This document shows, piece by piece, positions 15,348 through 31,176 of a stretch of DNA of 64,000 bases. A program made the position numbers and the translations under genes. The stretch is from positions 1,367,574 to 1,431,573 of the forward strand of contig CBDFJQ010000002.1 in NCBI GenBank assembly GCA_965248575.1, given 5' to 3'. Source of the stretch: Planctomycetota bacterium (GTDB lineage Bacteria > Planctomycetota > B15-G4). The notes under the pieces were generated by a model, which saw only the letters and a list, made by a program, of their open reading frames with translations, made no database searches and was not told the DNA's origin. Positions within the stretch are counted from its first letter, which is position 1. The number at the start of each line of letters is the position of its first letter.

Positions 15348-16844
15348 GTGCGGACCGGGAGACATCGACAATTCTGGTGGCACCCGGCTGGCGCGGGTGC
15401 CCTTTTCATGCTCTTGCTGGGCGGGTGTTCTTCCCTGCCTGAGCTGGACTGGAATCCGCTCATCCGCATCGAGCACACGCCGGATGGATCCGTCGAGATC
15501 GAGGCCCTGGGCCCGCTGATCGACATCCGTGAGGGCCCCGAAGGGACCTCCCACGCCCTGCGCCCGCTCTACCAGCACAAGGCCAACTTCGGCAAGCCGA
15601 TCACCGATTTCCTGGCGCCCTTCGGCCGGCGCTTCGTCACGGCCGACGCGACCCGCTGGCGCTTCTGGCCCCTCGTCTGGTCGGGTGAAACGCGCGACAG
15701 TCCCGAAGGTGCCGAGTGGGATGCGGTCCTGCTGCCCCTGATCTTCACCGGCGGCGGCCCGCGCCAGGGCGATGGCTACTTTGCCCTCTTCCCGTTGGGC
15801 GGGCGCATTCGCAACATCTTCGGCCTCGAGACCTTCGATTTCTTCCTCTGGCCCTTCTTCATGCGCACGCGCATGGACATCGACGAGCAATCCACCTCGT
15901 GGACGGTCTTGCTGGGCGGCGGCTGGACCACCGGCGGCCCCCGCGACGACAGCTGGCGGGCCCTGCCCTTCTACCGGCACCGCATCGTGCGCCATGTCGA
16001 CGGGACCCTGCGCACCGATCAACGCAGCGCGCTCTGGCCCATCTTCACTTGGGGGCTGGACCACGGCGACAGCGCCGACCCTTCCATGCGCTTTTCCGCC
16101 TGGCCGCTGTTCGGCCGCGAAGCGGGGGAGAGCTGGTCTCGAACCACCGTGCTGTGGCCCTTCTTCCGCGTGAACCGCGAGACAGAAGAGGCCGGCGGTG
16201 ACTACCTCTACGACCTTCCGTGGCCGCTGGTACGCGTCTCCAAGGACGAGAAGAAGTCGGTCACGCGCGTCTTCCCCTTCTACAGCCACCAGGTGAGTGA
16301 GGACTTGGACTCCCTCACGCTGCTCTACCTGTATTGGGACCGGGCCAGCACCGGCCGGACCTCCGACGAGGGCTGGCCGCCGCGGAACTACGAACGCCAG
16401 GACACCTACCTGTTTCCCTTCTGGCACAACTCTCACCGCACCGTGTCCGGGCGCGAGGGGGCCGACGTCCAACATCAACTTTGGCCGCTCTTTCACCGCG
16501 ACGCCGACGCACGCGGACGTCGGGATGCCGCCTTCCTTTCCCTGGTACCGACGCGTCACTTCGAATTCCTGCGCCCCGTCGACGAGCTCTACTCGTTCTT
16601 GTGGACCCTCTGGCGTTCGCGCTCGGACGGCACCAGCCACGAGACGCGCTTCCTCTTCGACACGGTTCTTTATCGCGAGTCCCCGGAAGGTCTCAGAATC
16701 TCGGTTCCCTTCCTCTATTCTCGGCGCCCAGACTCCGCAGGCCTCGACAAGCACCAGATCCTCTGGGGCCTGCTGGGCGCGGGAACGGACGCAGACGGTC
16801 TAGCCGAACTCAGCTTGGCGGGGTGGACGCTTTGGGCACGCTAA
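15348..16844 (+). CDS. Tryptophan-rich repeat lipoprotein of unknown function (signal peptide plus lipobox LLGGC)
   Basis: N-terminus MRTGRHRQFWWHPAGAGALFMLLLGGCSS is a lipoprotein signal. The body carries about eight degenerate copies of a (L/F)WP(L/F)(F/V) motif spaced 25-30 aa apart. Strong GC3 coding bias on this strand. Its 3' end overlaps the mlaE start. Confidence 0.6.
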   Translation: MRTGRHRQFWWHPAGAGALFMLLLGGCSSLPELDWNPLIRIEHTPDGSVEIEALGPLIDIREGPEGTSHALRPLYQHKANFGKPITDFLAPFGRRFVTADATRWRFWPLVWSGETRDSPEGAEWDAVLLPLIFTGGGPRQGDGYFALFPLGGRIRNIFGLETFDFFLWPFFMRTRMDIDEQSTSWTVLLGGGWTTGGPRDDSWRALPFYRHRIVRHVDGTLRTDQRSALWPIFTWGLDHGDSADPSMRFSAWPLFGREAGESWSRTTVLWPFFRVNRETEEAGGDYLYDLPWPLVRVSKDEKKSVTRVFPFYSHQVSEDLDSLTLLYLYWDRASTGRTSDEGWPPRNYERQDTYLFPFWHNSHRTVSGREGADVQHQLWPLFHRDADARGRRDAAFLSLVPTRHFEFLRPVDELYSFLWTLWRSRSDGTSHETRFLFDTVLYRESPEGLRISVPFLYSRRPDSAGLDKHQILWGLLGAGTDADGLAELSLAGWTLWAR

Positions 16845-17644
16845 AGACAACTCTCGAGTCTCGCGGCCGCGCGATTCGGGAGACGGTCACCGAAGCGGGC
16901 TTCGCCGTCACGATCCTGCTGCGCAGTGCCCAGCGCATCGTGCCCGACCTGCGGCACCGCTCGCGCTTCACCCTGGACCAGCTGGCGGTCTGTGGCATCT
17001 CGCCCCTGCCCGTGGTCTGCGTCGTGGGTCTCTTCACCGGCATGCTGCTCGCGCTGCAGGTCGGCATGGAGCTCTCGAAGGTCGGTCAGTCGGAAGCCAT
17101 CGCCAACATGCTCGGCGTGATCCTGTTCCGCGAGATGGGCCCCTTCATGACGTCCATGATCCTCACGGCCAGCGTCGGCAGCGCCATGGCGGCCGAGATC
17201 GGGACCATGCGCGTCTCCGAGGAGATCGACGCGCTGGAGTGCATGTCCGTCGACCCCATCTCCTTCCTGGTCATGCCGCGCATCATCGCCATGGCCATCA
17301 TGACGCCCATCCTCACCTTCATCGGCTGCATCCTGGGCTGCATCGGCGGCGGCATCGTGGCCAAGACGCAGCTGTCCGTCTCCGCCTCCGTCTACCTGCG
17401 CAACCTGCTCAGCTCGCTCGAGGCGGAGCCCAACAGCCTGGGCCCGTTCCCCGAGGAGATCTACACGGGGCTGATCAAGTCCGTGGTCTTCGGCGTGCTC
17501 GTAGCGACCATCAGCTGTGCGGCCGGACTCAAGGCAAGCGGTGGCGCCATCGGAGTGGGCCGCTGTGTCCGCACCGCCGTCGTGCGCTGCTTCCTGATGC
17601 TGATCATCATCGGCTACTACATCTCCTGGATGTTCTTCAAGTGA
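16823..17644 (+). CDS. mlaE: Phospholipid ABC transporter permease MlaE family
   Basis: In-frame GTG at 16823 begins VDALGTLKTTLESRGRAIRETVTEAGFAVTILLRSAQRI.... The 273-aa multi-TM protein has the MlaE/YrbE signature ...EMGPFMTSMILTASVGSAMAAEIGTMRVSEEIDALE.... The upstream part of ORF 16334..17644 overlaps the lipoprotein gene and is not coding. Confidence 0.8.
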   Translation: MDALGTLKTTLESRGRAIRETVTEAGFAVTILLRSAQRIVPDLRHRSRFTLDQLAVCGISPLPVVCVVGLFTGMLLALQVGMELSKVGQSEAIANMLGVILFREMGPFMTSMILTASVGSAMAAEIGTMRVSEEIDALECMSVDPISFLVMPRIIAMAIMTPILTFIGCILGCIGGGIVAKTQLSVSASVYLRNLLSSLEAEPNSLGPFPEEIYTGLIKSVVFGVLVATISCAAGLKASGGAIGVGRCVRTAVVRCFLMLIIIGYYISWMFFK

Positions 17645-18393
17645 TCCAACTCGAGAACGTTCACAAGTCCTTTGGCGATCTGCACATCTTGCGCGGCGTC
17701 GACCTCACCCTCGAAAGTGGCGAGACGCTCGTGGTCCTGGGCCTCTCGGGCACGGGCAAGAGCGTCACCTTGAAGCACATGGTGGGCTTGCTGAAACCCG
17801 ATTCGGGGCGCATCACCGTGGACGGCGTGGACGTACCCACCGCGAACGGTGAGCAGCTGCGGGATATCCGCCGCAAGGTCGCCTACCTCTTCCAGACGGG
17901 TGCGCTCGTGAACTGGATGAGCGTCCGCGACAACGTGTCCCTGCCGCTGGTTGAGAAGCGCTCGCTGCCCCCTGGCGAGATCCGTGAGCGCGTAGACGAA
18001 TCGCTGCAGTCGCTCGACATGTTGGAGGCGGCCGAGCGCATGCCGGCCGAGATCTCCGGCGGCATGCGCAAGCGAGCGGCCCTGGCCAGGGTGCTCGTCG
18101 CCCAACCCAAGGCCATCCTCTACGACGAACCCACCGCGGGCCTCGACCCCATCATGGCGCGCACCGTGGGCCACCTCATCCGGGACGTCCAATCGTCCGG
18201 TGATCGCACCGCCATGGTGGTCACGCACGACCTCGAACTCGCCTTCGCGGTCGCCACCCGCATCGGGCTCCACTTCGAGGGCCAGCTCATCGAGCTCGCG
18301 CCCCCGGACGAATTCAAGCAGAGCAGTCACCCCATCATCCGCGCCTTCCTCGACGGCAGCACCACCGTCGAGGGGGAGGGACTCAAGAAGTGA
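17641..18393 (+). CDS. mlaF: Phospholipid ABC transporter ATP-binding protein MlaF family
   Basis: GTG at 17641 overlapping the mlaE stop (GTGA). VIQLENVHKSFGDLHILRGVDLTLESGETLVVLGLSGTGKSV (Walker A), LSGGMRKRAALARVL (signature), ILYDEPTAGLD (Walker B). Confidence 0.85.
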   Translation: MIQLENVHKSFGDLHILRGVDLTLESGETLVVLGLSGTGKSVTLKHMVGLLKPDSGRITVDGVDVPTANGEQLRDIRRKVAYLFQTGALVNWMSVRDNVSLPLVEKRSLPPGEIRERVDESLQSLDMLEAAERMPAEISGGMRKRAALARVLVAQPKAILYDEPTAGLDPIMARTVGHLIRDVQSSGDRTAMVVTHDLELAFAVATRIGLHFEGQLIELAPPDEFKQSSHPIIRAFLDGSTTVEGEGLKK

Positions 18394-19604
18394 AGAACCG
18401 CAACAACGACGCAATCCTGGGCATCGTGTTCTTTGGCGCCTTGATCGGCCTGGGCGTCATGACGATCGTGCTCTCAGACTTTGCCCTCGGCGCGGAGACC
18501 TTCCGCGTGAAGGTCTACGCCACCGACATCGGCTACCTGCGAGCAGGCGACCCTATCCTTCTGCATGGCATGGCCGCCGGCAAGGTGGAGGAGATCAACC
18601 GGCTCCCGCAGCCGCTGCTCATCGCCGAGCCCCACGACTCCAGCGGCGCGAGCCCAGGCGAGGCCAACTGCACGGTGGAGGTTCAGCTGAAGATGGAGGT
18701 GGACCCCTATCTCTACCTGCGCCAGGACTACGACATCCTGATCGAGGACCTGGGCCTGCTGGGCGGCAAGATGGTGCGCATGGTCGTGGGGAGAGCAGAC
18801 GTCTTCATCCCCAAAGGCCAACAGCTCTACGCCTTGGCCCCCCCGTCGGCCGTCCAGGCTGCCAGCGAGATCCTCGAAGAGAACCGGGCCGACATCCGGG
18901 ACGCCATCGCCCAGATCAACGAGTTTGCCGAGAAGGCGAACCGGGGTGAGGGCACCCTGGGCCTGCTCATGAATGACGCCGAGACGCGGGCGCGCATCGA
19001 GGGCATCATCGACGACATCACCACGGTGGGCGATAGCCTGACCAACGGCGAGGGGACCATGGGCAAGCTGCTCAACGACAGCGCACCCTTCGACGACTTG
19101 AAGGTGGCCATGGCCGATGCTCGCAGCTTCACTGACCGCATCCGCAAGGGTGAAGGCACCGTGGGCAAGATGATCCAGGACGACACCATCTACGAGGACA
19201 TCCGTTCGCTGACAGAAGAGGCGCGGACAGGGCTCTCAGGCATCTGGGATGGCGAAGGAACCCTGGGCAAGCTGATCAACGACGACGCCCTCTACGCACA
19301 GGCCGAAGAGTTCATGGCGGATCTGCTCGAGATTGCCGAGAAGGTCTCCGACGGCGAGGGCACGCTCGGCCGTCTGCTCAATGACGCCCAGCTCTACGAT
19401 GACGTGGTGGCCTTCGTGAACGATGCGAGGGTCGTGTTCAGCGATCTGCGCGATGGCAAGGGGCTTGTGGCCGCGCTCATCAACGACGAAGAGCTACTCG
19501 ACGACTTCCGCTCCATCCTGAGCCAGGTGCTTGGGGCCATCGAGGACGCCCGGGAAACGACGCCCGTCACCAGCCTCGGATCCTTCCTGTTCGGCACCTT
19601 CTAG
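18390..19604 (+). CDS. mlaD: MCE-domain protein MlaD family with a long C-terminal tandem-repeat region
   Basis: GTG start overlapping the mlaF stop. N-terminal TM (AILGIVFFGALIGLGVMTIVL) then an MCE domain. C-terminal 185 aa consists of about six ~30-35-aa repeats centred on G-E-G-T-[LMV]-G-[KRL]-L-[LIM]-N/Q-D. Confidence 0.8.
   Translation: MKNRNNDAILGIVFFGALIGLGVMTIVLSDFALGAETFRVKVYATDIGYLRAGDPILLHGMAAGKVEEINRLPQPLLIAEPHDSSGASPGEANCTVEVQLKMEVDPYLYLRQDYDILIEDLGLLGGKMVRMVVGRADVFIPKGQQLYALAPPSAVQAASEILEENRADIRDAIAQINEFAEKANRGEGTLGLLMNDAETRARIEGIIDDITTVGDSLTNGEGTMGKLLNDSAPFDDLKVAMADARSFTDRIRKGEGTVGKMIQDDTIYEDIRSLTEEARTGLSGIWDGEGTLGKLINDDALYAQAEEFMADLLEIAEKVSDGEGTLGRLLNDAQLYDDVVAFVNDARVVFSDLRDGKGLVAALINDEELLDDFRSILSQVLGAIEDARETTPVTSLGSFLFGTF
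18945..19510 (+). repeat. In-frame coding tandem repeats (6 copies, about 90-105 nt each) inside mlaD
   Basis: Protein-level repeats: NRGEGTLGLLMNDAE / TNGEGTMGKLLNDSAPFDD / RKGEGTVGKMIQDDTIYED / WDGEGTLGKLINDDALYAQ / SDGEGTLGRLLNDAQLYDD / RDGKGLVAALINDEELLDD. Confidence 0.7.
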
Positions 19605-19608
19605 CCGG

Positions 19609-21033
19609 TCAGGCCTCGCCAGCGGTGGACAGCAAGCCGATGTAGCGTCGGAAACGCTGCAGCAGCAATTGCGGCCGGCGCAGCTCGCGCATGATGCGCG
19701 AGGGGCGCATGTAGAAGCTCCGGTAGGCCCGGCGGATGGCTGCGGACACCTGCTCGCTGCTCATGACCTTGGCCACACCCACAGGCGTGGTGCCCGTGAA
19801 CTTGTCGAAGTCGAACTCGTCCTCCTGCTCGGCCCGGCTCTCCTTGTAGAGCTTTGTGTCCGGGTACGGCGTCACCACCGTGAACTGGACGGTGTCGGGG
19901 TCGAGGTAGATCGCCAGGTCGATGGTCTCACGTGCCATCGCCGGGGTCTCCTCCGGGAAGCCGATCATGAAGAAGCCGCGCGTGGCAATGCCATGCTTCT
20001 TACAGGACTCCATGACGACCTTGGCGTGCTCGTGGCTCTTGATCTTGCCGCGGCTGTACTTCTTCTGCAGCCCTTCGTTGCCGGCCTCGATGCCGAAGGA
20101 GACCGAGACGCAGCCGCCGCGCGCCATGGCGGCGATGAGCTCGTCGTCCATGGTCTTGATGGCCGTCTCACACTGCCAGAGCACGCCGAGCTTTGCCTGT
20201 TCCAGCATGGCGCTCAGCTCGATGACGCGGTCGCGGTCGTAGGCAAACAAGGGGTCCCGGAACACGATGTTGGTCACACCTTGCTCGTGAACGATTTGTT
20301 TCAGCTCGTCGAACACATTGACGGCTGATCGGCCACGCCACGGAATGCCCTGCGCAACCACGTACCCGCAGTACGTGCAGTTGATGGGGCAACCCCGGGA
20401 GGACTGCACCGTCTGGATGGGCCCCTCCATCGTGGGGATGCGGTACGGCTCCACGGGCAACAGTGCGCGCGAAGGGAAGGGCAAGGCATCCAAGGCGTCA
20501 CCGCGCAACAGCGGGCGGTCCGGGTTGCTGCTGGCCCCGCTCCCACGACGCACCGTCAGGCCATCCACGGCCAGGGGGTCCTCCCCCGCCTCAAGAGCCT
20601 TGAGCATCTGCTCAATGGTCAGCTCCGGCTCGCCGCGCACCACCGCGTCCACCTGCGAACCCGCCATGGCCAGGTCCGGCACCTTGCTGCCCTGGCTGCC
20701 CGTGATGCAGACCACGCTGTCCGGGGACACCTCTTTGATGCGATCGACCAACGCCAGATCCAGCGAGATGGTCGCGCTGGACGTCGCCAGGACCACCAAC
20801 GGCGAGGGGTGGGCCGCCAGTGCCTCCAGCACCACGCTGTCGTCCGATCCGTCCGCCTCGGCGTCCACGACGCTGGCCTGGTGACCCGCCCGCTCCACGA
20901 TGGCCGCCACGTAGAGCAGGTCCAGGGGCGGATAACAGAGCCCTTCACCCACGACCATGCCAAAACCGCCCATGAGCCCTCGGCTCACGCGCTGACTAGG
21001 AGGTGGTGGTGGATTGACGAGCAAGACGTGCAT
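19609..21033 (-). CDS. Cobalamin-binding (class B) radical SAM enzyme
   Basis: N-terminal B12-binding Rossmann-like domain (MHVLLVNPPPP...LLYVAAIVERAGHQASVVD...), then the radical SAM core with the CxxxCxxC cluster motif (SSRGCPINCTYCG) and GGCVSVSFGIE. 474 aa. Confidence 0.85.
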   Translation of the reverse strand: MHVLLVNPPPPPSQRVSRGLMGGFGMVVGEGLCYPPLDLLYVAAIVERAGHQASVVDAEADGSDDSVVLEALAAHPSPLVVLATSSATISLDLALVDRIKEVSPDSVVCITGSQGSKVPDLAMAGSQVDAVVRGEPELTIEQMLKALEAGEDPLAVDGLTVRRGSGASSNPDRPLLRGDALDALPFPSRALLPVEPYRIPTMEGPIQTVQSSRGCPINCTYCGYVVAQGIPWRGRSAVNVFDELKQIVHEQGVTNIVFRDPLFAYDRDRVIELSAMLEQAKLGVLWQCETAIKTMDDELIAAMARGGCVSVSFGIEAGNEGLQKKYSRGKIKSHEHAKVVMESCKKHGIATRGFFMIGFPEETPAMARETIDLAIYLDPDTVQFTVVTPYPDTKLYKESRAEQEDEFDFDKFTGTTPVGVAKVMSSEQVSAAIRRAYRSFYMRPSRIMRELRRPQLLLQRFRRYIGLLSTAGEA

Positions 21034-21200
21034 GGGGCGGCGTGGATCCTATCAGGCTGCTCGCCAGAGTCGACGAGAGGCCTTCTTTCGCGCGTTTTCA
21101 CCACCCAACTTGAGGCATCTAAGTGCGTTGATATCAAAGGCTTAACCAAAGTCATCCAGAAGCACGTCCGAAGAAAGGTGTTCGAAACTTCATTGTCACT
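21034..21200. promoter_or_regulatory. Divergent promoter region with a locally AT-richer stretch, between the rSAM gene and the 1049-aa gene
   Basis: 167-nt intergenic gap between divergently oriented genes. The stretch aacttgaggcatctaagtgcgttgatatcaaaggcttaaccaaagtcatccagaagcacgtccgaagaaaggtgttcgaaacttcattgtcac is markedly less GC-rich than its surroundings. Confidence 0.35.
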
Positions 21201-24200
21201 TTGGACGGAGAGGAGCCGGGCCAGCAAAGCGATCTGCTGGACGACTCCGCGCAAGCCACCTTGAACGACTCACATCGGGCCTCAGCGAGGCCCTTTTTCC
21301 ATTTCGCCGGCGCAGCGACGCTTCTGACCCTCGTGGCCCTGGCCGCCGTGGTCGTGGAGCCCAGCGAGGCCCCGACGTCCTCGTCCGCAGGCATCAACTC
21401 GAGCGCAGCCTTGGCACTTGGCTCTGCAGGCGCAGCCTCAGAACGACCTGGGCTGGAGTTGCCCTCGGACGGTGACCAGGCTCGCAACACCCGGCTGGAG
21501 TTGTTTGACCGGAAGCCTAGCCAAAGCGTGCCGCTGCTCGTGGACGACCCTCAGCTTGGCGCCGAGCTGACGGGCAAGGAACAGAAGAAGCTGAACAAGC
21601 TGGCCAAGAAGTGGGCCAAGACAGGCGGAAAGATCGCCAAGAAGGAAGCGCTCGTGGTTCAGCGCATTGGCGAACTCGCCGCCGCTCAGGCCGCCCTCGT
21701 CGCAGCCAATGCCCTCCCGGACGGAACGCCTGAAGAGCTGACCCAGAAGGCGAAGGCCATCAAGAAGGCCGAGAAGAAGCTGCTCAAGGCACAAAAGAAG
21801 CTGCTCAAGGCACAGACCAAGTTGGTGGGCCTCAACTCCAAGCTCACGGCCTTTGTCGCGGCCATCGATGAGGTCGACCCTGGCTACTTCGAGAGCCAGA
21901 CGGGCCCCCCACCGGAGCCCGATCCGGACCCGACGGGCGAGCCGGACCCCGACCCCGCCACCAACCCCGGACCCGACTTCCAAGGCGCCGGCGTGCCCAC
22001 CCTGCCCGTCTTCGTGCAGGAAGCCCGGCCGAGCAACGGCACGGGGGTCACCCGCGCTGGAGACATCGCCACCTTCGGCATCCCATTCTCCGAGGGAGAC
22101 GTCGGCATCAAGTCGGGCCGCCCCGCCTTGGCCGTGTCCGGTGCGGACTCGTTTCAGTTCCGCACGCTGAAACTCTGGCCCGACGGCAGCGTCCAGTGGG
22201 CGCTCTGCGACCTGCAGACAGATGTCACCGCCGGCGTCATCAGCCAAGGTCTCGTGGTGCTGGGTGGCGACGGCCAATCGGTCCAAGCCAACCTCGCTGA
22301 CGAGAACGGCAGCTCAATCCAGATCGACACCGGCCCGCTGCAGGCGACAGTCCTCAAGACCACGTTCAACTTCCTCGACAGCGTCACCGTCGACGGGACG
22401 CTGCTGGTCGACGGCCCCAGCGGCCGTGGCCTCACGGGGCGGGCACCCAACGGCGACCTGCTGGTCCCAGCCCTGACGACTGTCACGCTGGAAGAGAATG
22501 GCCCCACCCGCGCCATGATCCGCGTGGACGGCACGATGGTGGACCCCGGCGCCGTGAAGTTTGTCGACTTCACCTTGCGCATCGTGGCACGCCGCGGCTC
22601 GCGCGACCTGGAAACGCAGCTCACGGTTCGCAACGCCAACATCGCTCGCCCCCAACACGCGGTGATCGAGTCCCTGGAGCTCTCCGTCGAGAGTCTGCTC
22701 GGGAGCAGTTCTAGCTCGGTGCGCATGGCCGGGCACGCTGGTGAGCACACCGGCATCCTGCTGTCGTCCCTGGACGCACACCTCTACCTGGCCCACACGG
22801 CCACCAACCAGGCGGGGCTGGGCGGGGCGCAGTATGTCCCCCACCTCCCCAACGTCAGCTCGGGGAGCAAGACGTTCACGCAGGAAGGCTACGAGGCCGC
22901 CATCGCCGGCTCCACGCTGCAGTCCCTGGGTAACGAGAACCTCTACCCCGAGCACGGATGGATCGACCTCACTGGCCCGAACGGCGGCGTGACGGTCGGC
23001 ATCCGACAGGCCCCGTACATGTACCCGGTCTCGCTCGAGGCGTACGGTTCGGGCAAGGTCACGGCGGGCATGTTCAGCTCACACAACCCGGCCGACTTCA
23101 CCTTCAGCTGGCAGCAGCACGAAAGCCGTTCGGCGGTGTTCTCGTTCCACACCGGAGTCGCAGCTGACCCCGAGGCTGTCGTGCGCCGGCTGGACTACCC
23201 CGTCGTAGGCCGCTTCGCGGACTACAAGGACTACGACCGCGCGGGCGTCTTTCCGTACCGCCTGCTCACCAAGCAAGAGCAGGAGGAAGCCCTCTCGCTG
23301 ATGGGCATCAACCACAACATCAGCGTGGGCAACAACACCTTCCTCGTCACCAAGTACCTCTACAAGGGGACGACCGGCGGCACGAACAACCACGCGGGCA
23401 TCGAGCTGCACCTCGGCGGCGATTGGTTGCGGCATGGCACAGGCGGCCAATACCTCTCCGCAATGAATCTGGCCCTCTACAAGTCGGAGTGGCAAGTCGC
23501 TCGTTCGGACAACTTCGAGGACGAAGATGATCCGGGCGCCAGCAACGACCAGGTCCCCCACAGCGTGGGCTTCCAGAGTGACGACGAACATCGCTACCGC
23601 GATGGCATGATCCTGGCGTACCACCTCACGGGTGACCGACGCCTGCGCGAAGCCCTCTACGACGAGGCCGAGGTCCTGCAGAGCGTGTCACTCTGGCCCC
23701 ATGAGCGCTCGATGTACCAGACGCTGCGTGCCATGGGCCTGGTGGCGGAGTTCACGGGCGACCCAGCCCTGATCCCCACGCTGCGCGCACGCCTTCAGTA
23801 CATCACGCAACCCACGGTCAACGTCAACACGGCGAGCAGCGGTTGGGGTTGGGAAACCAGTCAGGACGTGGGCCAACGCCGCTACTTCGTCAACAGCTCG
23901 GACAACAAGAACGAGAAGCCGCCGGGGGAGAACTTCCAGTGCCGGGGCTTCATCTCCGCCAGCCTCGGGCCGCTCGGCTACTTCCACGCCGCACGCTTCT
24001 TCGCCTCCAATGACCCTGACGGCATGGCAGCCAGGGGCCGCATGCGCGACCTCTCCTACTGGGCGCGGGAAGAAATCTTCAGCAACGACCCCAACCCGGT
24101 GAATCGCCGCCTCATGTACTCGTACGCCGTGACGCAGCAACAGGTGACGAACTGGGAGAACGTCGACTTCCATCCGATCTTGTTGGGCATGGCGGAGAGC

Positions 24201-24350
24201 TACCTGGACACCACCGACATCGTCTATCTGCTGCGCGGCGCCGACCAGCTCGAATCCGCGCAGGCGCACGGCGATCTCTACCGCTGGAACACGCGCATGG
24301 ACTGCCAGCACTTCCTCGCCATCTACCGCGACTGGGCCCTCTCCCTCTAG
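21201..24350 (+). CDS. Large (1049 aa) membrane-anchored or secreted protein of unknown function (possible polysaccharide-modifying enzyme)
   Basis: N-terminal hydrophobic anchor (FFHFAGAATLLTLVALAAVVV), a Lys-rich coiled-coil (KKLNKLAKKWAKTGGKIAKKEA...KKAEKKLLKAQKKLLKAQTKLVGL), an acidic Pro-rich linker (PPPEPDPDPTGEPDPDPATNPGPD), then an ~800-aa globular region. GC3 bias is consistent with coding. The exact start is uncertain. Confidence 0.55.
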   Translation: MDGEEPGQQSDLLDDSAQATLNDSHRASARPFFHFAGAATLLTLVALAAVVVEPSEAPTSSSAGINSSAALALGSAGAASERPGLELPSDGDQARNTRLELFDRKPSQSVPLLVDDPQLGAELTGKEQKKLNKLAKKWAKTGGKIAKKEALVVQRIGELAAAQAALVAANALPDGTPEELTQKAKAIKKAEKKLLKAQKKLLKAQTKLVGLNSKLTAFVAAIDEVDPGYFESQTGPPPEPDPDPTGEPDPDPATNPGPDFQGAGVPTLPVFVQEARPSNGTGVTRAGDIATFGIPFSEGDVGIKSGRPALAVSGADSFQFRTLKLWPDGSVQWALCDLQTDVTAGVISQGLVVLGGDGQSVQANLADENGSSIQIDTGPLQATVLKTTFNFLDSVTVDGTLLVDGPSGRGLTGRAPNGDLLVPALTTVTLEENGPTRAMIRVDGTMVDPGAVKFVDFTLRIVARRGSRDLETQLTVRNANIARPQHAVIESLELSVESLLGSSSSSVRMAGHAGEHTGILLSSLDAHLYLAHTATNQAGLGGAQYVPHLPNVSSGSKTFTQEGYEAAIAGSTLQSLGNENLYPEHGWIDLTGPNGGVTVGIRQAPYMYPVSLEAYGSGKVTAGMFSSHNPADFTFSWQQHESRSAVFSFHTGVAADPEAVVRRLDYPVVGRFADYKDYDRAGVFPYRLLTKQEQEEALSLMGINHNISVGNNTFLVTKYLYKGTTGGTNNHAGIELHLGGDWLRHGTGGQYLSAMNLALYKSEWQVARSDNFEDEDDPGASNDQVPHSVGFQSDDEHRYRDGMILAYHLTGDRRLREALYDEAEVLQSVSLWPHERSMYQTLRAMGLVAEFTGDPALIPTLRARLQYITQPTVNVNTASSGWGWETSQDVGQRRYFVNSSDNKNEKPPGENFQCRGFISASLGPLGYFHAARFFASNDPDGMAARGRMRDLSYWAREEIFSNDPNPVNRRLMYSYAVTQQQVTNWENVDFHPILLGMAESYLDTTDIVYLLRGADQLESAQAHGDLYRWNTRMDCQHFLAIYRDWALSL

Positions 24351-25084
24351 GCGCCGCCATCGGCCTCGAGGGGCTTGCGCAACACGCCGTAGAGCGAGAC
24401 ACCAAAGGGCAGGTCCAGCCGCTTCTCGATGGCGATCTCTGTGCGAGTGATGAGCCCTGCCAGCCACTCGGCAGGCGCAGGCATGGGCACCGCGAAGTCC
24501 GACGTGGCTTCCTCAGGCGGTGTGGGCGAGAGCCCGCGCAATTTGCGCAGCGCCCAGACCGGAGGGAAGAGCGCCATCGAGCTGTAGCTCATGCGCTCCG
24601 TGACGAAGCCCGCTTGCTCGAGCCGCCCCCGCAGTTGCGGGCGGCGGTAGCGTCGATGGTGGTGATAGGCCTCATCGTGAGGGCTCCACAAGGCCATGAA
24701 GGCGGGGACCGTGGCGACCAGGACGCCACCGGGGCGCAGCACCCGGTAAACCTCGCGCATGGCCGCCACGTCGTCCTCGAAGTGCTCGAAGGCATCCAGC
24801 GCCAACACCACATCGAAGCCGGCTTTGCGGAAGGGAAGCTCGAGCGCATCCCCTCGGACGATGCGATCGATCCCTCGCTCCCCGCACAGTCGGATCGTCT
24901 CCTCGGAGATGTCGATCCCCCTGATCTCTCCGTAGTCGGCGAGAAAACGGAAGCTCATGCCCGTGGCGCAGGCGAGGTCCAGGATCTGTAGCGGCCCCTG
25001 ACGGGTCACGTAACGGTCCAAGGCCGCGCGCACGAGGGCCCGCCGTCCTTGGTACCACCAATGAGTTTCCTCAATGGCGAACAT
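24347..25084 (-). CDS. Class I SAM-dependent methyltransferase
   Basis: ORF 24347..25345; likely start MFAIEETHWWYQGRR (ATG complement 25082-25084). Motif I ILDLACATGM and a post-I acidic residue GIDISEE. 245 aa. Its stop overlaps the stop of the convergent 21201..24350 gene (CTAG). Confidence 0.8.
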   Translation of the reverse strand: MFAIEETHWWYQGRRALVRAALDRYVTRQGPLQILDLACATGMSFRFLADYGEIRGIDISEETIRLCGERGIDRIVRGDALELPFRKAGFDVVLALDAFEHFEDDVAAMREVYRVLRPGGVLVATVPAFMALWSPHDEAYHHHRRYRRPQLRGRLEQAGFVTERMSYSSMALFPPVWALRKLRGLSPTPPEEATSDFAVPMPAPAEWLAGLITRTEIAIEKRLDLPFGVSLYGVLRKPLEADGGA

Positions 25085-25104
25085 GCGATCGAACTCGGCA
25101 GTGT

Positions 25105-26304
25105 TCACGGGGTGCCGTGTGCTCCACCGGGGCCAGCTACTCTGCCGTCCGACGCCGGTGCTTCCCCATCGGTGGTGCTCTTGTTGCGGGGGTCCACGGG
25201 GCCTCCATGCTTCTCCATGGCGATGATCTTGCGGGTGACCGCGATCATGAACAGGAAGCCACCAGCGAAGATCAGGTAACGGTAGGGGGCGCTGGTCTGG
25301 CGCGCCAGGATCCCGAGGTACGCGATGATCAACGCCAGGCCCCACAGGATCACGACGGCCTCTGCGCTGCTGAACCCACCTCGCACCAAGCGATGGCTCA
25401 GGTGGTGGCAGTCACCCAGGTACACCGGCCGCTTCTCCTTGATCCGCATGAAGACCACGAAGGCCGCATCGAAGAGCGGAATGCCCATGAACAAGACGGC
25501 GGGGATCAGGTGGCTGGCGCCGAAGTCGTGACTGCCAACGCCCATGAAGCCCTTGACCAGGTCGAACTGCACCCACGCCATCCAGAACCCGATGAACATG
25601 CTGCCCGTGTCGCCCAGGAAGACCCGGCTGCGCGGAAAGTTGTAGGGCATGAAGCCCAGGACGGCGGCGAGCAGCACGACGGCCACGGTCATGGACCTGT
25701 AGCTGTCCGTGTTGGACATGTAGAGGATGGCCGCCGCGAAGGAGATGACCGACAGACCGGACATCAGACCGTTCATGTTGTCCGAGAAGTTGAAGCTGTT
25801 GACGATGGTCAGATACCAACCCAGGAAGAAGAGCTGGTAGAGCCATTGCTCTGGACTCCCGCCGCCTGAGATCAGGTCTCTCAAAGTCGGCAGCATGAGC
25901 ACGAGCACGCCCACGATCTGCCCCAACAGCTTGGGCTCGAAGCCCATGGAGTCCTTGAAGATGTCGTCAACCAGCCCGATCAGGAAGATGACGATGCTGC
26001 CCGCTATCACGAAGCTGATGACGGAGAAGCGTAGTCCTTCATCACCCAGCTGGGACTCGGATTGGGTCCAGACCACGGCCAGGCCCGCCATGACGCCGCA
26101 GACGACACCCAGCCCGCCCAGCAAGGGGGTCACCTTCTCGTGGGTCTTGCGGCCCCCAGGCTTGTCCACGATCCCAAAGCGCCGTGCCAGGACGAGGAAG
26201 AGCGGAACGGTGACAAGAGCCACCGCAAGAGCCGCGCCAAAGCCCAAGGCAGCAATCCGAAGAACGGGTTCGTCGAACAAGGAGGAGGTGTCCCGGAAGT
26301 CCAA
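25105..26304 (-). CDS. Polyprenyl-phosphate N-acetylhexosamine-1-phosphate transferase (GT4/MraY-WecA family; initiating transferase)
   Basis: 11-TM protein with WecA/MraY signatures: GIVDKPGGRKTHEKVTPLLGGLG, LIGLVDD, NSFNFSDNMNGL, VFLGDTGSMFIGF. 399 aa. Confidence 0.85.
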   Translation of the reverse strand: MDFRDTSSLFDEPVLRIAALGFGAALAVALVTVPLFLVLARRFGIVDKPGGRKTHEKVTPLLGGLGVVCGVMAGLAVVWTQSESQLGDEGLRFSVISFVIAGSIVIFLIGLVDDIFKDSMGFEPKLLGQIVGVLVLMLPTLRDLISGGGSPEQWLYQLFFLGWYLTIVNSFNFSDNMNGLMSGLSVISFAAAILYMSNTDSYRSMTVAVVLLAAVLGFMPYNFPRSRVFLGDTGSMFIGFWMAWVQFDLVKGFMGVGSHDFGASHLIPAVLFMGIPLFDAAFVVFMRIKEKRPVYLGDCHHLSHRLVRGGFSSAEAVVILWGLALIIAYLGILARQTSAPYRYLIFAGGFLFMIAVTRKIIAMEKHGGPVDPRNKSTTDGEAPASDGRVAGPGGAHGTP

Positions 26305-26373
26305 GGTGACTCTATCCCGATCGGAGAACCGCGGCCAGCTCTAGAGCCTGTCCGCTCCCAAATCCCGGCGCGC

Positions 26374-27444
26374 CTACGTTCTCAAATTCAGACCGCGGCG
26401 GCCAAACCAACGAAAGACGCCATCCACCTCGCACATCACCTCGGACAGATCGCTGTCTTCATTCACCGCGATGCGCTTGAGGTCCAGCAGGGGCGTGGCG
26501 GCGTCATTCAGTCCAGGCATGGCAGTCGTCGAGCTGCGAAAGCCCAGCTCTTCGAGGATCGAGCGCGTCTCCTCGTTGTAGTCCCATGTCCTGCCGTAGG
26601 GATAGGCGAAGGACGCGATGCTGTGGCCCAACCAGGATTCCAGGTCGCGCAGTGAGCCCTCGATCTCCAGGCGCTGCTGCGTGGCATCCAGCGACGAAAG
26701 AATCAGGTGGTTCACGGTGTGGGCTCCGATCTCCACCCCTGCCTTGTCCAGAGCCCGACACTCATCCGGGCCGAGATAGACATGGCTCGCCAGCTCGGCA
26801 TCCACCCCCCCCAGGTCCGAGAAGATACGCGCCAGGATGGTGTCCCGCTCCTTGGGCGTGACCTCGTACTTCAGCAGGCGTTTCATCTCGTACTCGGCGG
26901 CAACGTCATCCTTGGGCAGGCTTCGCAGGTCCTCTCGCAGATGTTGCTTGTCCACCTGCTGGGCGAGACGCTCGGCGAGGTCGTGTGCCCCTCCCAAGTG
27001 CAGTGCCCAGAAGTAATGATGGAGCCAGTTGAGACGCCCCTTCATGGGACCGGTCTGAACGTAGATCGTCGCCGTAGCCCCCATGGACTGGAGCAGGGGC
27101 AGCAAGACGTCGTGGTTGTCGAGGTAGCCGTCATCGAAGGTCAGCACCACCGCATCGGAAGGCACGGCCCCCGATTGCAACTCGTCCACCATCTGGTCCA
27201 CGGTGCACGTTCGATAACCAGCCGCCTGAAGCATGCGTAGCAGGCGCCGCAACTTGGCCTCACTGATCTTCATGTGCCCTGGCAGATAATCCGTCTCCGC
27301 GGGGCTGCCCACGTTGTGGAACATGAGGATGGGCACTCCCTCCCGCGACGCCCGGAACAGCGACCTCAAGCCCGTCAGGTGGAAGGCCTTGGCCACGAAG
27401 GTGGAGAGCCAACGCTTGAGTGTGTGTTTCATCGAGTTCTGCAT
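26374..27444 (-). CDS. Polysaccharide deacetylase family protein (carbohydrate esterase 4)
   Basis: ORF 26374..27987; likely start MQNSMKHTLKRW (ATG complement 27442-27444; the upstream 180 codons overlap the next gene and look non-coding). Motifs ILMFHNVG, LTFDDGYLDNHDVLLPLL, GAHTVNHLIL. Confidence 0.8.
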   Translation of the reverse strand: MQNSMKHTLKRWLSTFVAKAFHLTGLRSLFRASREGVPILMFHNVGSPAETDYLPGHMKISEAKLRRLLRMLQAAGYRTCTVDQMVDELQSGAVPSDAVVLTFDDGYLDNHDVLLPLLQSMGATATIYVQTGPMKGRLNWLHHYFWALHLGGAHDLAERLAQQVDKQHLREDLRSLPKDDVAAEYEMKRLLKYEVTPKERDTILARIFSDLGGVDAELASHVYLGPDECRALDKAGVEIGAHTVNHLILSSLDATQQRLEIEGSLRDLESWLGHSIASFAYPYGRTWDYNEETRSILEELGFRSSTTAMPGLNDAATPLLDLKRIAVNEDSDLSEVMCEVDGVFRWFGRRGLNLRT

Positions 27445-27475
27445 GACGAAAGCTTCGAGAGGTGGTTCGGCGGCA

Positions 27476-28603
27476 TCAGGCGGACAGATGTTCGGCGTCC
27501 CGGTCACCATCGGCCAGATGCCAGCGGGAGATGTCGCCATCCTCCGGACGAGCATCCTTGCGACAAGCACGCACGATGAATGGGAAACGATCCCTGAACA
27601 GTTTACTGCCCGAGGGCTCAGGCCAGCCGAGCTCTCGCAAGGTGGCGGCTGCTGGGTGGTGTAGAAAACAGAGGGCCGTGGCCTCCAGCATCCCGCGTGC
27701 ATGGCCCATGGCGGTGAAGGCCAGCAGCAGCTCCCGTCGAGCCGCCTCGTCCCGGGCGACGTGATCCACAAGGAAGGCATTGCCACCGTGGAACTCCACG
27801 ACGAGCAGGCCGTCGAGCCGCGCAGCCCGCGCCCCGCCCGCTGCTGCCGACACAGCCTCGCCAGGGGCGGGCAACACGTAGCACTCCTGGCGGCCGCTTG
27901 GGGTGTCCACGTAGCGCCAGTTGAGCCAAGCCGCGTCGCGCTCCCCCACCAGCCCCTGGCAGGGCATGGCCGCTTCGCAGAGCTCATCGACGGATTCGGT
28001 CAATCCAACGACCCCATCGAAGCGAGCGACCCGGGTCAGGGGAGAGTGCCAAGCCTCGAATCTCTTGCGATCCCGCCGAAAGCGCCAGCCATCCAGGAGC
28101 GGCGCCAACTGCGCAGCCAGTGGCGCCACGCGCCCCAGTCGACGCAACCCCCGCTCGCTGCGATACCCGTAGCGGAACACGGAGGCTTGTCCGATGTCTT
28201 CCCAGCCGTTGCCCAGGAAGCCCGTGTAGGAGAGACGCCCTGAATAAGCGAACACCCACGGGATGCCCATCTCCCCGGCGGCCTCACACACGATGTCATC
28301 CAGCCCCGTGAAGATGCCCTGCCGTCGGGCCTCCGGAGCGACCATGGCATCGGAAGCCTGCATCAGGAGCAGGGGCTGGCCGTCCCGCCGGAATCTCCGC
28401 GGCACATAGCTGTAGGCACCCACCACCTTTCCCCGCCCGTCCACGGCCACACGCGAGATGGCCGGACCATGGGGGTTCTTTGCATACTTCCAGTCGAAGG
28501 TGTCGACCTGCTTGTCCTTCCGGAAGCAAGCGTTGAACAGCCGACACTGGTCCTCGCGGTCAGCCGCACCGGCCTCGCGCCAGGTCCAGGGGCGTTCGCT
28601 CAT
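27476..28603 (-). CDS. GNAT/FemAB-like acyltransferase (Acetyltransf_6-type, common in EPS loci)
   Basis: ORF 27476..28693; likely start MSERPWTWREAGAADREDQCRLFNACF... (ATG complement 28601-28603, overlapping the upstream gene stop as ATGA). Pattern FDWKYAKNP...VAVDGRGKVVGAYSYVPRRF resembles the BioF2/FemAB-like GNAT fold. Tentative. Confidence 0.5.
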   Translation of the reverse strand: MSERPWTWREAGAADREDQCRLFNACFRKDKQVDTFDWKYAKNPHGPAISRVAVDGRGKVVGAYSYVPRRFRRDGQPLLLMQASDAMVAPEARRQGIFTGLDDIVCEAAGEMGIPWVFAYSGRLSYTGFLGNGWEDIGQASVFRYGYRSERGLRRLGRVAPLAAQLAPLLDGWRFRRDRKRFEAWHSPLTRVARFDGVVGLTESVDELCEAAMPCQGLVGERDAAWLNWRYVDTPSGRQECYVLPAPGEAVSAAAGGARAARLDGLLVVEFHGGNAFLVDHVARDEAARRELLLAFTAMGHARGMLEATALCFLHHPAAATLRELGWPEPSGSKLFRDRFPFIVRACRKDARPEDGDISRWHLADGDRDAEHLSA

Positions 28604-29829
28604 CGGATGCCCGCCGGAGCGTCCACCCGCCCCCCGCCCAGCATCTTCACGGCCCGTTCTACGTCCGAGACCGACAGCTCGTTGTTCCAACACCCGGCAC
28701 CGGCCCGCGCCTCGTCCAGGCCCGGCTTGCCCTCACCTTGGGCACCCGCGTGCTGCACCAGCACCTGGGGTCGGACGGCGATGCGCCGGTCTGCAAACCA
28801 GCGTTGCCAGGCAGAGAGCATGGGGCGCGTCTGTCCGCTACGACCGAGGACGTGCAGCACCACGGCAGACATGCCCGTCACCCGCACGGCCTCGACGGCA
28901 CCTTCCAGACGCGGACGGACCGGGTCGTCCATGGGCGTCCGAGCCTCGGCCTCGATGTCCTCAGGCGAGACGACGAGCACTTCCTTGCAACCTCCTTGGG
29001 CCAAGGTCAGCACGAACGACGGCGAGACGTGATCGGCACGCACACGACAGCTCCAGGGCACACCCGGCGCCGCACCAAACATGCCCCGTGCCACCTCGTC
29101 AGTGAACTCCTGGTCCCGGCCGAGATCGCGATCGTCGAACACCAGCGCGCGGCAGCCGGAGCGCGTCACGGCATGCCGAACCTCTCGGAAGGTGTGGTCG
29201 GGGTCATCCCGCAGGGGACCGACGGTCGTCGTGCGCTGGCCATTGGTCATGCGCGCCGCATAGGCATCCAACGCGAACAACTGCCAGGCCGGCAAAATGT
29301 CGTTCTCGCGATCCGACTCCGCAAGATCGGTGACGTCCACGTCGCACTGCAGCCGCCCTCCATCGAGGCGGGCGAGACCGGGCGTGGACGGTGAGAATTC
29401 CCGCGCGAGGCTCTCGCCGACCGGCCCCAGCATGACCCCTTCCAAATTGGGCAGCAGGGCCATGAGCTCTGCGCCGTAGCGATGGGCCAGGGGGCCACAG
29501 GCCAAGACCGGCGCGGGCCAATCCCAGCCGCTCAGGAGGCTGATGAGCGGACGGGCATCGGGTACGGGGTTCTGGGCCACCGTACTGCCCCCCGCATGCA
29601 ACAACACGAGGTCGGGGCGCCACATCTTGAGTTCACGGCGCACAAGCCGGTGCCCCAGCTGCTCGGAGTCCTGGTCGAGAACGCGCACTTCCGCGCCGTG
29701 GCGCAGAAGCCGGGCGCTCATCATGGCCACATCCCACGAGGGTGGGCCCACGGTCTCGGCCGTTGCGAGGCGAAGGCCACGCTGAGGGCCCTTGGTCACG
29801 ACGATCATGACGCGCCAGCGTCTCTTCAC
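28600..29829 (-). CDS. Degenerate paralogue of class B radical SAM enzymes (B12-like N-domain retained, CxxxCxxC cluster motif absent); predicted pseudoenzyme
   Basis: Collinear with the 19609..21033 protein: MIVVTKGP...WDVAMMSARLLRHGAEVRVLD vs LLYVAAIVERAGHQASVVD; VTRSGCRALVFDDRDLGRD vs GVTNIVFRDPLFAYDRD; LAQGGCKEVLVVSPE vs MARGGCVSVSFGIE. Where the paralogue has SSRGCPINCTYCG this protein has TTTVGPLRDDPDHTF, with no cysteines. Confidence 0.6.
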   Translation of the reverse strand: MKRRWRVMIVVTKGPQRGLRLATAETVGPPSWDVAMMSARLLRHGAEVRVLDQDSEQLGHRLVRRELKMWRPDLVLLHAGGSTVAQNPVPDARPLISLLSGWDWPAPVLACGPLAHRYGAELMALLPNLEGVMLGPVGESLAREFSPSTPGLARLDGGRLQCDVDVTDLAESDRENDILPAWQLFALDAYAARMTNGQRTTTVGPLRDDPDHTFREVRHAVTRSGCRALVFDDRDLGRDQEFTDEVARGMFGAAPGVPWSCRVRADHVSPSFVLTLAQGGCKEVLVVSPEDIEAEARTPMDDPVRPRLEGAVEAVRVTGMSAVVLHVLGRSGQTRPMLSAWQRWFADRRIAVRPQVLVQHAGAQGEGKPGLDEARAGAGCWNNELSVSDVERAVKMLGGGRVDAPAGIR

Positions 29830-29842
29830 GGCAATCCGCCCT

Positions 29843-31096
29843 CTAGTGACTCATCAAATCGCGGTGGACGGCTTCCACCGCATCCAGCTGCTTCTCCAAG
29901 CTAAACATCTGAGAAGCCCGCATGCGCCCCGCCGCCCCCATTCGTTTGGCCAGAGCGGGGTTCAGCAGCAGGCGCCGCAGCCGGTCGGCCATGACCGCCG
30001 TCTGCAGGGGGTTCACCAGGAAGCCCGTCTCACCATCCACCACCACGTCCGAGGGACCGCCCCACATGGAGGCCACCACGGGCCGCCCGGCAGCCATGGC
30101 CTCCAGATTCACCAGGCCAAAGGACTCGAAGCAGAGCGAAGGGCTGACCACCACGGACGCCAGGGAGAAGGCCGCGGCCAGCTCGTCACCTGTCAACCAA
30201 CCGGTGCGGACGAGCCGTTCGGCCCCCAGTCCATTGCGCTCGGCCAGGGCCAGCATCTCCTCGAAGAAGCCCGGCAAGGCATCGCCCACCAACAGCAGGA
30301 CCAGATCGGGCACATCCTGCACCAGGGCGGCCAGGGACTCGACCAACTCGAGCCCTCCCTTGAGCCTGTCGATGCGCCCCCCATAGAGCACGCAGGGCTG
30401 GCCAGCGACACCTAGGCGCTCCGCCAGCTGGCGCGCTACATCAGCCTTTGGCACTGCAACCGCAGGGGGAGCGGCATTGAAGACCGTCGTGCAGGGCCCG
30501 ATACCGCTCTGCGCCAGGGCAGCCCCCATCTCGTCGCTTACGGCCAGCAAGCGATCCACATCCGACGCCAGCACCTTCTTGATGCGCCCATTGCGCAGCG
30601 GATTGAAGCGGCCGCGCACGCAAACGGCACACTTCAGGAGGCCATTCCGATAGGGAACGGGATCGCCCGGCTCGAGCCGCTCGTCCAGGTGACAGAACAG
30701 CTTCTGGTGGCACACGGGCATGATGTCATGCACGTGCAGGATCGTCCTGCAACCCGCAGACCCTGCGGCTGCAAGGGCAGCGTAGCTCAGGTGGATGTGC
30801 AGGTTGTGCACGTGAACGATCTCTGGCCGCACCTCGGCCACCACGCGCTGCATGGCCGAGACGCCCCCGGGGTTGTCCAGGCTGCGCCAAGCCTTCCAAC
30901 GGGGGTTGTAGGTCGGCGTGTACTCCAGGTGCACATCGACCCCGTTCTCGGTCCAGCGGCGAGCCTCAGCAGGCTTCTGGGTCGTAGCCAGGAAGGAGAC
31001 CTCATGCCCCCGACTGGCCAGCCCCTCCGCCATGCGGACCGCGACCCCCGCAGCTGAGGAACGCCCATAGAGATCGTTCGCGACGAGCAGCTTCAT
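29843..31096 (-). CDS. Glycosyltransferase family 4 (GT-B)
   Basis: 417 aa. The C-terminal domain has the GT4 E-x7-E region: VSPSLCFESFGLVNLEAMAAGRPVVASMWGGPSDVVVDGETGFLV. Confidence 0.85.
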   Translation of the reverse strand: MKLLVANDLYGRSSAAGVAVRMAEGLASRGHEVSFLATTQKPAEARRWTENGVDVHLEYTPTYNPRWKAWRSLDNPGGVSAMQRVVAEVRPEIVHVHNLHIHLSYAALAAAGSAGCRTILHVHDIMPVCHQKLFCHLDERLEPGDPVPYRNGLLKCAVCVRGRFNPLRNGRIKKVLASDVDRLLAVSDEMGAALAQSGIGPCTTVFNAAPPAVAVPKADVARQLAERLGVAGQPCVLYGGRIDRLKGGLELVESLAALVQDVPDLVLLLVGDALPGFFEEMLALAERNGLGAERLVRTGWLTGDELAAAFSLASVVVSPSLCFESFGLVNLEAMAAGRPVVASMWGGPSDVVVDGETGFLVNPLQTAVMADRLRRLLLNPALAKRMGAAGRMRASQMFSLEKQLDAVEAVHRDLMSH

Positions 31097-31176
31097 CGCC
31101 GCTCGACGGGGCCCCGTCGCCCCGACCGTCGTTCAACCTGTCCTGCAAGCCGTCCTGCAACAACGACCACGTCAGC

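Follow-up and report, generated by a model that had tools for sequence, protein, structure and literature searches.

What is the role of a 1049-amino acid (aa) protein that begins with a membrane anchor and a basic helical segment, devotes the rest of its length to one large region, and is encoded back to back with a B12-binding radical S-adenosylmethionine (SAM) enzyme? The question is raised by the open reading frame (ORF) at 21201-24350 on the + strand of a 64,000-nucleotide stretch of Planctomycetota bacterium contig CBDFJQ010000002.1 (GenBank assembly GCA_965248575.1). That whole stretch is called the window below, and the ORF and its product are called the target. An earlier note on this DNA had suggested a cell-surface polysaccharide lyase or hydrolase, with a heparinase II/III-like enzyme as a guess, or else an entirely new fold. 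As modeled here, the conserved region of ~780 aa has a three-domain fold of the PcRGLX/PL26 type (PL26, polysaccharide lyase family 26), composed of a RIFT barrel, a beta-sandwich and an alpha/alpha toroid. We consider it very probable that the target has a PcRGLX-like fold and is an extracytoplasmic carbohydrate-active enzyme (CAZyme). The further prediction, that it is a tethered periplasmic enzyme processing the glycan of its own gene cluster, seems to us evenly balanced between right and wrong. The modules of the target are as follows (pLDDT, predicted local distance difference test; pI, isoelectric point; TRF, Tandem Repeats Finder).

21201-21299, + strand: short, acidic tail, aa 1-33, ending in HRASARP and predicted to be cytoplasmic
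21300-21356, + strand: single transmembrane or signal-anchor segment, aa 34-52 (Kyte-Doolittle maximum 2.14)
21357-21572, + strand: low-complexity Ser/Ala/Gly/Pro spacer, aa 53-124 (pLDDT ~30; poorly conserved in homologs)
21573-21875, + strand: Lys-rich alpha-helical hairpin, predicted helices aa 125-170 and 177-225 (AlphaFold2 pLDDT 86-97)
21774-21814, + strand: exact 21-bp tandem duplication giving the heptad KKLLKAQ twice, aa 192-205, KKLLKAQKKLLKAQ (TRF)
21903-22001, + strand: acidic Pro/Asp linker, aa 235-267, containing PEPDPDP (37% Pro, pI 4.05)
22002-22265, + strand: domain 1, PcRGLX-like N-terminal RIFT barrel, aa ~268-355 (Pfam PF19501; all-beta in the model)
22266-23165, + strand: domain 2, PcRGLX-like central beta-sandwich, aa ~356-655 (Pfam PF21345; model)
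23166-24347, + strand: domain 3, alpha/alpha toroid, aa ~656-1049 (helical in the model; holds most of the invariant residues)

Two Pfam domains were matched above their gathering cut-offs: PF19501 (PcRGLX_1st, aa 290-334), with an E value of 4.7e-5 and 23.6 bits against a cut-off of 22.1, and PF21345 (PcRGLX_2nd, aa 368-478), with an E value of 1.6e-6 and 27.9 bits against a cut-off of 23.5. The same domains were matched by 40 and 45, respectively, of 46 relatives. An AlphaFold2 model of aa 265-1049, built with a 46-sequence alignment, has a pLDDT of 95.2 and a predicted template modeling score (pTM) of 0.95; it is all-beta to about aa 650 and then becomes a helical toroid. The sandwich ends in an invariant strand motif, WxQHESR (aa 639-643, nucleotides 23115-23129). 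When the model was compared with the PDB by using Foldseek, chains of PcRGLX (5xqo, 5xqg, 5xq3 and 5xqj) filled ranks 1-13, with E values from 2e-21 to 3e-19, query template modeling scores (TMq) of 0.60-0.62 and 12-13% identity over ~990 aligned columns. Entries 5XQ3, 5XQG, 5XQJ and 5XQO are the PL26 exo-rhamnogalacturonan lyase of Penicillium chrysogenum. The next match (E 2e-7, template modeling score 0.2) covered sandwich-type domains only, leaving PcRGLX, with the same barrel, sandwich and toroid, as the best and only strong structural match. A profile of the family also matched the PcRGLX sequence (E 1e-17, chain residues 20-615 of 906), which amounts to profile-level homology over domains 1 and 2 and the first toroid helices; a single-sequence phmmer search with the whole target found no match among solved structures. 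The proposal of an entirely new fold thus fails, as Pfam, the family profile and Foldseek all lead to PcRGLX, and nothing resembling the heparinase II/III-type lyases (PL12/15/17/21) was matched by Pfam in the target or its 46 relatives, or found among the top 50 Foldseek matches.

No Pfam match to the toroid was found in the target or its relatives, PF21346 (PcRGLX_3rd) included, and a toroid-only profile matched no PDB sequence. A distant relative, P0047, likewise gave no direct match to the sequences of solved structures. With an alignment of 30 distant PcRGLX-like relatives, however, hhalign matched the toroid profile at a probability of 99.95% (E 3.5e-38, 368 columns), whereas single-sequence hhalign of the toroid against P0045 and P0047 gave a weak, motif-level match only. 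A few of these distant proteins carry matches to PF21346 or partial matches to PF07944 (GH127 catalytic). Residues H797, R836, R893 and E958 of the target align to conserved positions in this wider PcRGLX-like set, and R718, N729, R744 and E763 align to identical residues of PcRGLX itself. From these profile comparisons, the target toroid is clearly homologous to the toroids of other members of the PcRGLX-like superfamily.

CAZy families are defined by sequence, and the target is best described as structurally related to PL26: the fold is shared and the sequence similarity is partial, which makes it PL26-like rather than a demonstrated member of the family. To our knowledge, the PL26-like proteins include a single characterized member, the fungal pectin lyase. 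PL26 enzymes act by beta-elimination on a uronate-containing Rha-alpha-1,4-GalA (rhamnose-galacturonic acid) substrate, EC 4.2.2.24 (PMC13501991). The target differs from PcRGLX in being bacterial and membrane-tethered, with an extra N-terminal module of 267 aa, and in belonging to a biosynthetic cluster rather than a pectin-utilization context. Nothing about it points to a Rha-GalA substrate.

The target ORF is real and is coding over its full length, including the N-terminal 270 residues. It is the longest ORF of the region, with 1049 codons plus a stop, and it starts with TTG; a stop at 21129 in the same reading frame means that it cannot extend further upstream. Just two in-frame starts, TTG 21201 and TTG 21261 (aa 21), precede the hydrophobic core. 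A Shine-Dalgarno motif was found at neither, and the two starts are equally possible. An identical 1049-aa protein (P0001), from a contig of 5.29 Mb, is recorded in NCBI and ENA. The G+C content of third codon positions (GC3) is 0.79 in the tail and transmembrane segment, 0.75 in the spacer, 0.83 in the helices, 0.89 in the linker and 0.875 in the large domain, compared with 0.47 for the 167 bp of intergenic DNA upstream. Moreover, the order of transmembrane segment, Lys-rich helices and acidic or Gly-rich linker recurs in ~20 of 37 homologs. The possibility that the N-terminal part is non-coding and the real start lies far downstream, which had been named as a reason to doubt the ORF, is ruled out by the GC3 values together with the conservation of these three modules. 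A GC hairpin with a T run after it, resembling a terminator, is present inside the coding region at 21277-21293 (+), at codons ~26-33 and just before the transmembrane segment. One such site, against a shuffle expectation of 0.6 +/- 0.8, is within the range of chance, so it is probably fortuitous.

Each of the sequence strings quoted in the earlier note is contained in the translation, and its hydrophobic anchor corresponds to aa 34-52, the only hydrophobic segment of the protein by hydropathy. An ARP motif beside this segment is common to the target and homolog P0002. Nearly all homologs begin with a hydrophobic segment, as a transmembrane segment, signal peptide or lipobox at the equivalent place: in ~20 of 37 a transmembrane segment is followed by a Lys-rich region, and others have short signal peptides, some ending in lipobox-like LAAC or LAGC. 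In one homolog a PA14 domain is inserted between the helices and the catalytic region, and distant relatives carry type IX secretion system (T9SS) sorting tails or dockerin, fn3, PA14 or Kelch domains. The Arg and His residues before the transmembrane segment, the Glu after it and the export signals of homologs argue for an anchor of N-in, C-out orientation that places the enzyme outside the cytoplasm. We infer a type-II topology and an extracytoplasmic location; the target would then be a CAZyme tethered to the inner membrane. To this extent, that is, in its fold and in the anchors, signal peptides and lipoboxes of its homologs, the target agrees with the suggestion of a surface polysaccharide lyase or hydrolase.

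The basic segment behind the anchor had been described as a heptad-like coiled-coil stalk. Two Lys-rich helices are indeed predicted there, but the two long helices are joined by a turn of 6 residues (~LPDGTP, aa 172-177, in the AlphaFold2 model), which makes the segment a hairpin rather than one long stalk. We predict from the model that aa 125-225 form an intramolecular antiparallel hairpin ~7 nm long. Both helices are flanked by regions with pLDDT <50, and the turn motif, (M/L)P(E/D)xT(P/A)EEL, is conserved among homologs. The segment contains 20% Lys, with a net charge of +12 and a pI of 10.2; Pfam returned just generic coiled-coil noise for this region. A highly regular, near-perfect heptad is seen in helix 2 (aa 177-225), with I or L at position a and A, L, F or V at position d, a pattern reached by 1 of 5000 shuffles. 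In helix 1 (aa 125-170), which includes KEQKKLNKLAKKWAKTGGKIAKKEA (aa 126-150), the heptad pattern is not significant, being reached by 1869 of the 5000, so that the heptad description stands for the second helix only. The tandem duplication in helix 2 (TRF: period 21, 2.0 copies, 100% matches) has the look of a recent event that lengthened the helix, in frame, by one heptad. The acidic Pro/Asp linker that follows, with PEPDPDP at aa 238-244, is as it had been described; its residues 235-249 have pLDDT <50, and in homologs the linker at this place is acidic or Gly-rich and differs in length.

Among the cluster orthologs, P0027 and P0033 have no hairpin, and neither do the short N-termini at loci L029 and L030. 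With several orthologs from this cluster doing without it, the hairpin is an optional module. It is also not specific to the cluster copy: in L006 and L007, which stand alone, the alignment starts at query residue ~131, inside the hairpin region. Spacer, ~7-nm basic hairpin and acidic linker together would form an optional tether holding the enzyme off the membrane. We speculate that the basic hairpin may bind an anionic partner, either polymer or lipid, or dock to a component of the envelope.

A word-indexed search for relatives gave 48 matches, ~38 of them full-length at 40-59% identity, and all the named full-length homologs are hypothetical proteins of Planctomycetota metagenome-assembled genomes (MAGs). 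An exhaustive hidden Markov model search of 1.84 billion representatives with the toroid profile identified 157 proteins at E <= 1e-3 and 39 at E <= 1e-30, and the toroid family is thus rare. Among 185,579 species genomes, 28 loci were found. These are in uncultured Planctomycetota or Phycisphaerales MAGs, the exceptions being one Pseudohongiellaceae MAG and a MAG with no title beyond "bacterium" (loci L005 and L006). The family is thus seen almost only in the clade that carries the glycan cluster described below. Paralogs number up to five per genome, as in MAG OFTM49; no paralog of the target was found elsewhere in the 64-kb window, which holds one copy only.

An alignment of 28 homologs with 39-57% identity has 68 invariant columns, and these are concentrated at charged and aromatic positions in the toroid. 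They include N729, N730, R744, K761, E763, W764, Q765, R768, S769, D770, H797, R798 and Y799, and further along D812, R814, R836, W884, R893, R915, R947, D950, E958, H991 and Q1036. The block RYRDGMILAYHLTGDRR, which had been singled out as conserved-looking, indeed contains invariant H797-R798-Y799, G802, G811, D812 and R814 (RYRDGMILAYHLTGDRRLREALYDE starts at aa 798), and it corresponds to a superfamily-wide "EH...YYLTGD" motif. This density of invariant charged and aromatic toroid residues makes it likely that the target is an enzyme. The putative active site would be formed by invariant residues at the ends of toroid helices, with the QHESR strand from the sandwich as a cap; the candidate set is H797-R798-Y799, N729-N730, K761/E763/Q765, R836, R893, R915, R947, E958 and H991. 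The protein might alternatively be a non-enzymatic structural or adhesive component of the envelope that reuses a CAZyme-like fold as a glycan-binding module, a notion to which the PA14 glycan-binding domain added in one homolog, and the fact that no catalytic residue is pinned down in the target, lend some color. But invariant H, R, K, E, D, N and Y residues packed this densely over 28 sequences at ~45% identity are typical of an active site, not of a binding surface, and we regard a purely structural role as highly improbable.

The chemistry is less readily predicted from the residues. The invariant His/Tyr/Asn/Arg set would suit beta-elimination of the Tyr/His type, and hydrolysis would fit with the invariant Glu and Asp residues; that the target is a lyase specifically seems to us less likely than not. 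Similarity to the beta-L-arabinofuranosidase-like GH127/GH146 enzymes (PF07944) and to other six-hairpin glycosidases was also considered. A few distant toroid relatives give partial PF07944 or GH88 matches, and the helix motif "EH...Y.LTGD.R" is shared with distant toroid relatives. The catalytic centre of GH127 is a Cys/Zn site. The target has no PF07944 match and only 3 Cys residues, none of them in a conserved column, so a Cys/Zn centre of the GH127 type cannot be present and that assignment was rejected.

Whether the target acts on a polymer made by the cell itself turns on its neighbors.

19609-21033, - strand: B12-binding radical SAM enzyme of 474 aa, here rSAM1 (Pfam B12-binding and Radical_SAM)
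21034-21200, no strand assigned: divergent intergenic region of 167 bp (GC 0.515 versus ~0.65 in the flanks)
24347-38802, - strand: downstream biosynthetic genes, methyltransferase through GT1 (Pfam and NCBIfam)

The divergent pairing with the radical SAM gene, pointed out previously, is borne out by the Pfam matches, and the same rSAM1/target arrangement is present in 13 related genomes. The intergenic region is AT-richer, as had been said in calling it a promoter island, but no sigma-70-like promoter was found in it. Nor was an Rfam element such as a cobalamin riboswitch detected there at the gathering threshold; the only Rfam matches in the window are six tRNAs, none of them in the spacer. 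The best NCBIfam matches of rSAM1, to HpnJ and AprD4, are far below the cut-offs. Beyond the target, the order of genes is a class I SAM methyltransferase, a WecA-like GT4 glycosyltransferase of the polyprenyl-phosphate GlcNAc-1-P transferase type, a polysaccharide deacetylase, a GNAT protein, an uncharacterized soluble protein of 409 aa, a GT4, a second B12-binding radical SAM enzyme (rSAM2) and a Wzx-type flippase. These are followed by a GT4, a PMT_2 glycosyltransferase of the GT-C type and a GT1, the last two annotated in this window only, and further along by two sulfatase-domain membrane proteins, more glycosyltransferases and an NAD-dependent epimerase/dehydratase.

The order from rSAM1, target and methyltransferase to Wzx and the next GT4 is the same around homologs P0004, P0033 and P0022 (loci L001-L003). 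A tblastn comparison of the window neighbors with all fetched loci identified 13 genomes that each hold one copy of the target between rSAM1 and the methyltransferase, with the genes from methyltransferase to Wzx present in up to 13. Identities in these genomes are 68-82% for rSAM1, 59-82% for the methyltransferase, 77-90% for rSAM2 and 42-75% for the target. The copy in the window is the ortholog built into a conserved, Wzx-dependent glycan cluster primed on undecaprenyl phosphate, and our preferred reading is that the enzyme cleaves, trims, sizes, clears or otherwise processes the glycan of that cluster on the periplasmic side.

There is precedent for such an arrangement. AlgL (PL5), BcsZ (GH8) and PslG (GH39) are periplasmic glycanases or lyases encoded within their own exopolysaccharide clusters, and AlgL and BcsZ are also alpha/alpha-toroid enzymes. 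The target resembles them in having a fold of the glycan-cleaving type and a gene in a biosynthetic cluster; its periplasmic export and its action on its own polymer are predicted, the latter from synteny only. It differs from them in having no relation to them in sequence or family, in its domain composition, and in its tether of transmembrane segment plus hairpin.

Several observations weigh against this assignment and must be set beside it. Identity to PcRGLX is just 13%, the two sequences can be aligned only as far as PcRGLX residue 614-615, and the second half of the toroid is matched to PcRGLX by structure only. No gene of the cluster is less conserved than the target (42-75% identity versus 77-90% for rSAM2), and synteny alone is no proof of a shared pathway. 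Another fifteen loci carry paralogs that stand alone, with none of the cluster genes, so the family is not exclusively tied to the cluster. Finally, neither the window nor the syntenic flanks showed a recognizable uronic acid-forming (Ugd-type) gene, which argues mildly against a lyase and makes a strict lyase reading weaker.

The stand-alone paralogs (L006, L007, L011, L018-L021, L023-L027 and also L032-L034) all keep the invariant residues of the family, and they bring up a catabolic explanation, in which the target is a periplasmic exo-lyase of the PL26 type, or a related glycosidase, acting on polysaccharide imported from the environment, for example acidic glycans of algae or plants, with its position in the cluster being incidental. 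The only characterized structural relative is a catabolic pectin lyase, genomes have up to five paralogs, most of them outside the cluster and some near sulfatases, and the domain layout of distant relatives, with dockerins or T9SS tails, is that of secreted degradative enzymes. Yet the slot between rSAM1 and the methyltransferase is kept in 13 genomes, with the target at 42-75% identity. The paralogs examined have class I methyltransferases and sulfatase-domain proteins nearby and, in one case, a YfhO-like protein alongside, surroundings that look like envelope biosynthesis; no recognizable sugar-catabolic operon, whether a transporter, a sugar kinase/isomerase operon or a set like a polysaccharide utilization locus, was found beside them. 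We therefore hold the catabolic explanation to be unlikely.

The cluster and the hairpin together suggest yet another role, that of a non-cleaving modifier of the glycan or a factor in chain length or export: a C5-epimerase-like enzyme, a transglycosylase, or a periplasmic ruler with a hairpin like those of polysaccharide co-polymerases (PCPs) or membrane fusion proteins (MFPs). Folds that combine a toroid with a sandwich also host epimerases and phosphorylases, and two relatives weakly match the C-terminal model of D-glucuronyl C5-epimerase (E 0.014), but these matches are not significant. No Wzy, Wza, Wzc or Wzz was recognized in the cluster; the lack of the last three would leave room for such a factor. 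Like an MFP or PCP, the target has an inner-membrane anchor followed by a long antiparallel pair of helices predicted to project into the periplasm. The resemblance is one of outline only: the target has one transmembrane segment, not the two of a PCP, and by Pfam and the model neither the lipoyl nor the beta-barrel domains of an MFP, and its hairpin is unusually rich in Lys (20% K, pI 10.2) and dispensable in some orthologs. Absent as it is from P0027, P0033, L029 and L030, the hairpin cannot be essential to the conserved function. A role of this kind seems decidedly unlikely to us.

The glycan cluster as a whole extends over ~30 kb (19609-49115 of the window), its core being conserved in 13 uncultured Planctomycetota genomes, and it carries at least six GT4/GT1 enzymes. 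The rSAM2 gene is at 31177-32634, and the best sub-threshold matches of the two radical SAM enzymes are to HpnJ, AprD4 and BchE; the soluble 409-aa protein (28600-29829) shows faint AprD4-like similarity. As longest ORFs, the methyltransferase (24347-25345, - strand, 332 aa) and the deacetylase (26374-27987, - strand, 537 aa) both overlap their upstream neighbors. In homologous loci the corresponding genes are shorter by ~70-185 aa (247-263 aa for the methyltransferase and 352-353 aa for the deacetylase), and the true starts are therefore probably further downstream. The two sulfatase-domain membrane proteins, one of 741 aa with 4 predicted transmembrane segments (38370-40595, - strand) and one of 1052 aa with ~15 (40699-43857, + strand), have architectures reminiscent of LtaS, EptA or OpgB transferases rather than soluble sulfatases; their best NCBIfam matches are far below the cut-offs.

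Directly upstream of the cluster, at 15348-19604, are a 498-aa lipoprotein-like ORF (with LLLGGCSS), MlaE, an ABC ATPase and a 404-aa MlaD-like protein. This Mla-like block precedes the cluster in ~7 of the 13 syntenic genomes and is absent in L003; its position hints at a link to lipid or glycolipid transport. A housekeeping block occupies the 5' part of the window; its genes include rpoB and those for ribosomal protein L1, EF-Tu and a class I tRNA synthetase, and in related MAGs it is syntenic with the upstream flank of the cluster. Five tRNA genes are arranged around the EF-Tu gene (9001-10209) at 8646-11304 (- strand), and one more is at 50870-50955 (- strand). A literature search on this Planctomycetota cluster found nothing relevant. 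Arguably, the radical SAM-rich glycan cluster is more intriguing than the target itself.

A broader version of the own-glycan assignment, which we find rather doubtful, would make the target the founder of a distinct CAZyme family, separate from PL26 at CAZy level and confined to one clade of uncultured Planctomycetota, that processes a clade-specific envelope glycan or glycolipid in the periplasm, with the hairpin as a new spacer or docking device. The Lys-rich hairpin would then set where the enzyme sits with respect to the membrane or an anionic partner, synthesis of the glycan would use two or three B12-radical SAM enzymes, and the adjacent Mla-like system may transport the product. The sequence divergence of the toroid could justify a new CAZy family.

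Our findings on the target overturn no concept. They place the fold of PcRGLX in a new setting, where it is now seen as a rare, tethered bacterial subfamily within a radical SAM-rich glycan cluster. If the enzyme acts on the glycan of the cluster, it would be a specific depolymerase and a handle on an uncharacterized envelope polymer of this clade, and the rule that a biosynthetic cluster carries its own glycanase would be extended to a new fold.

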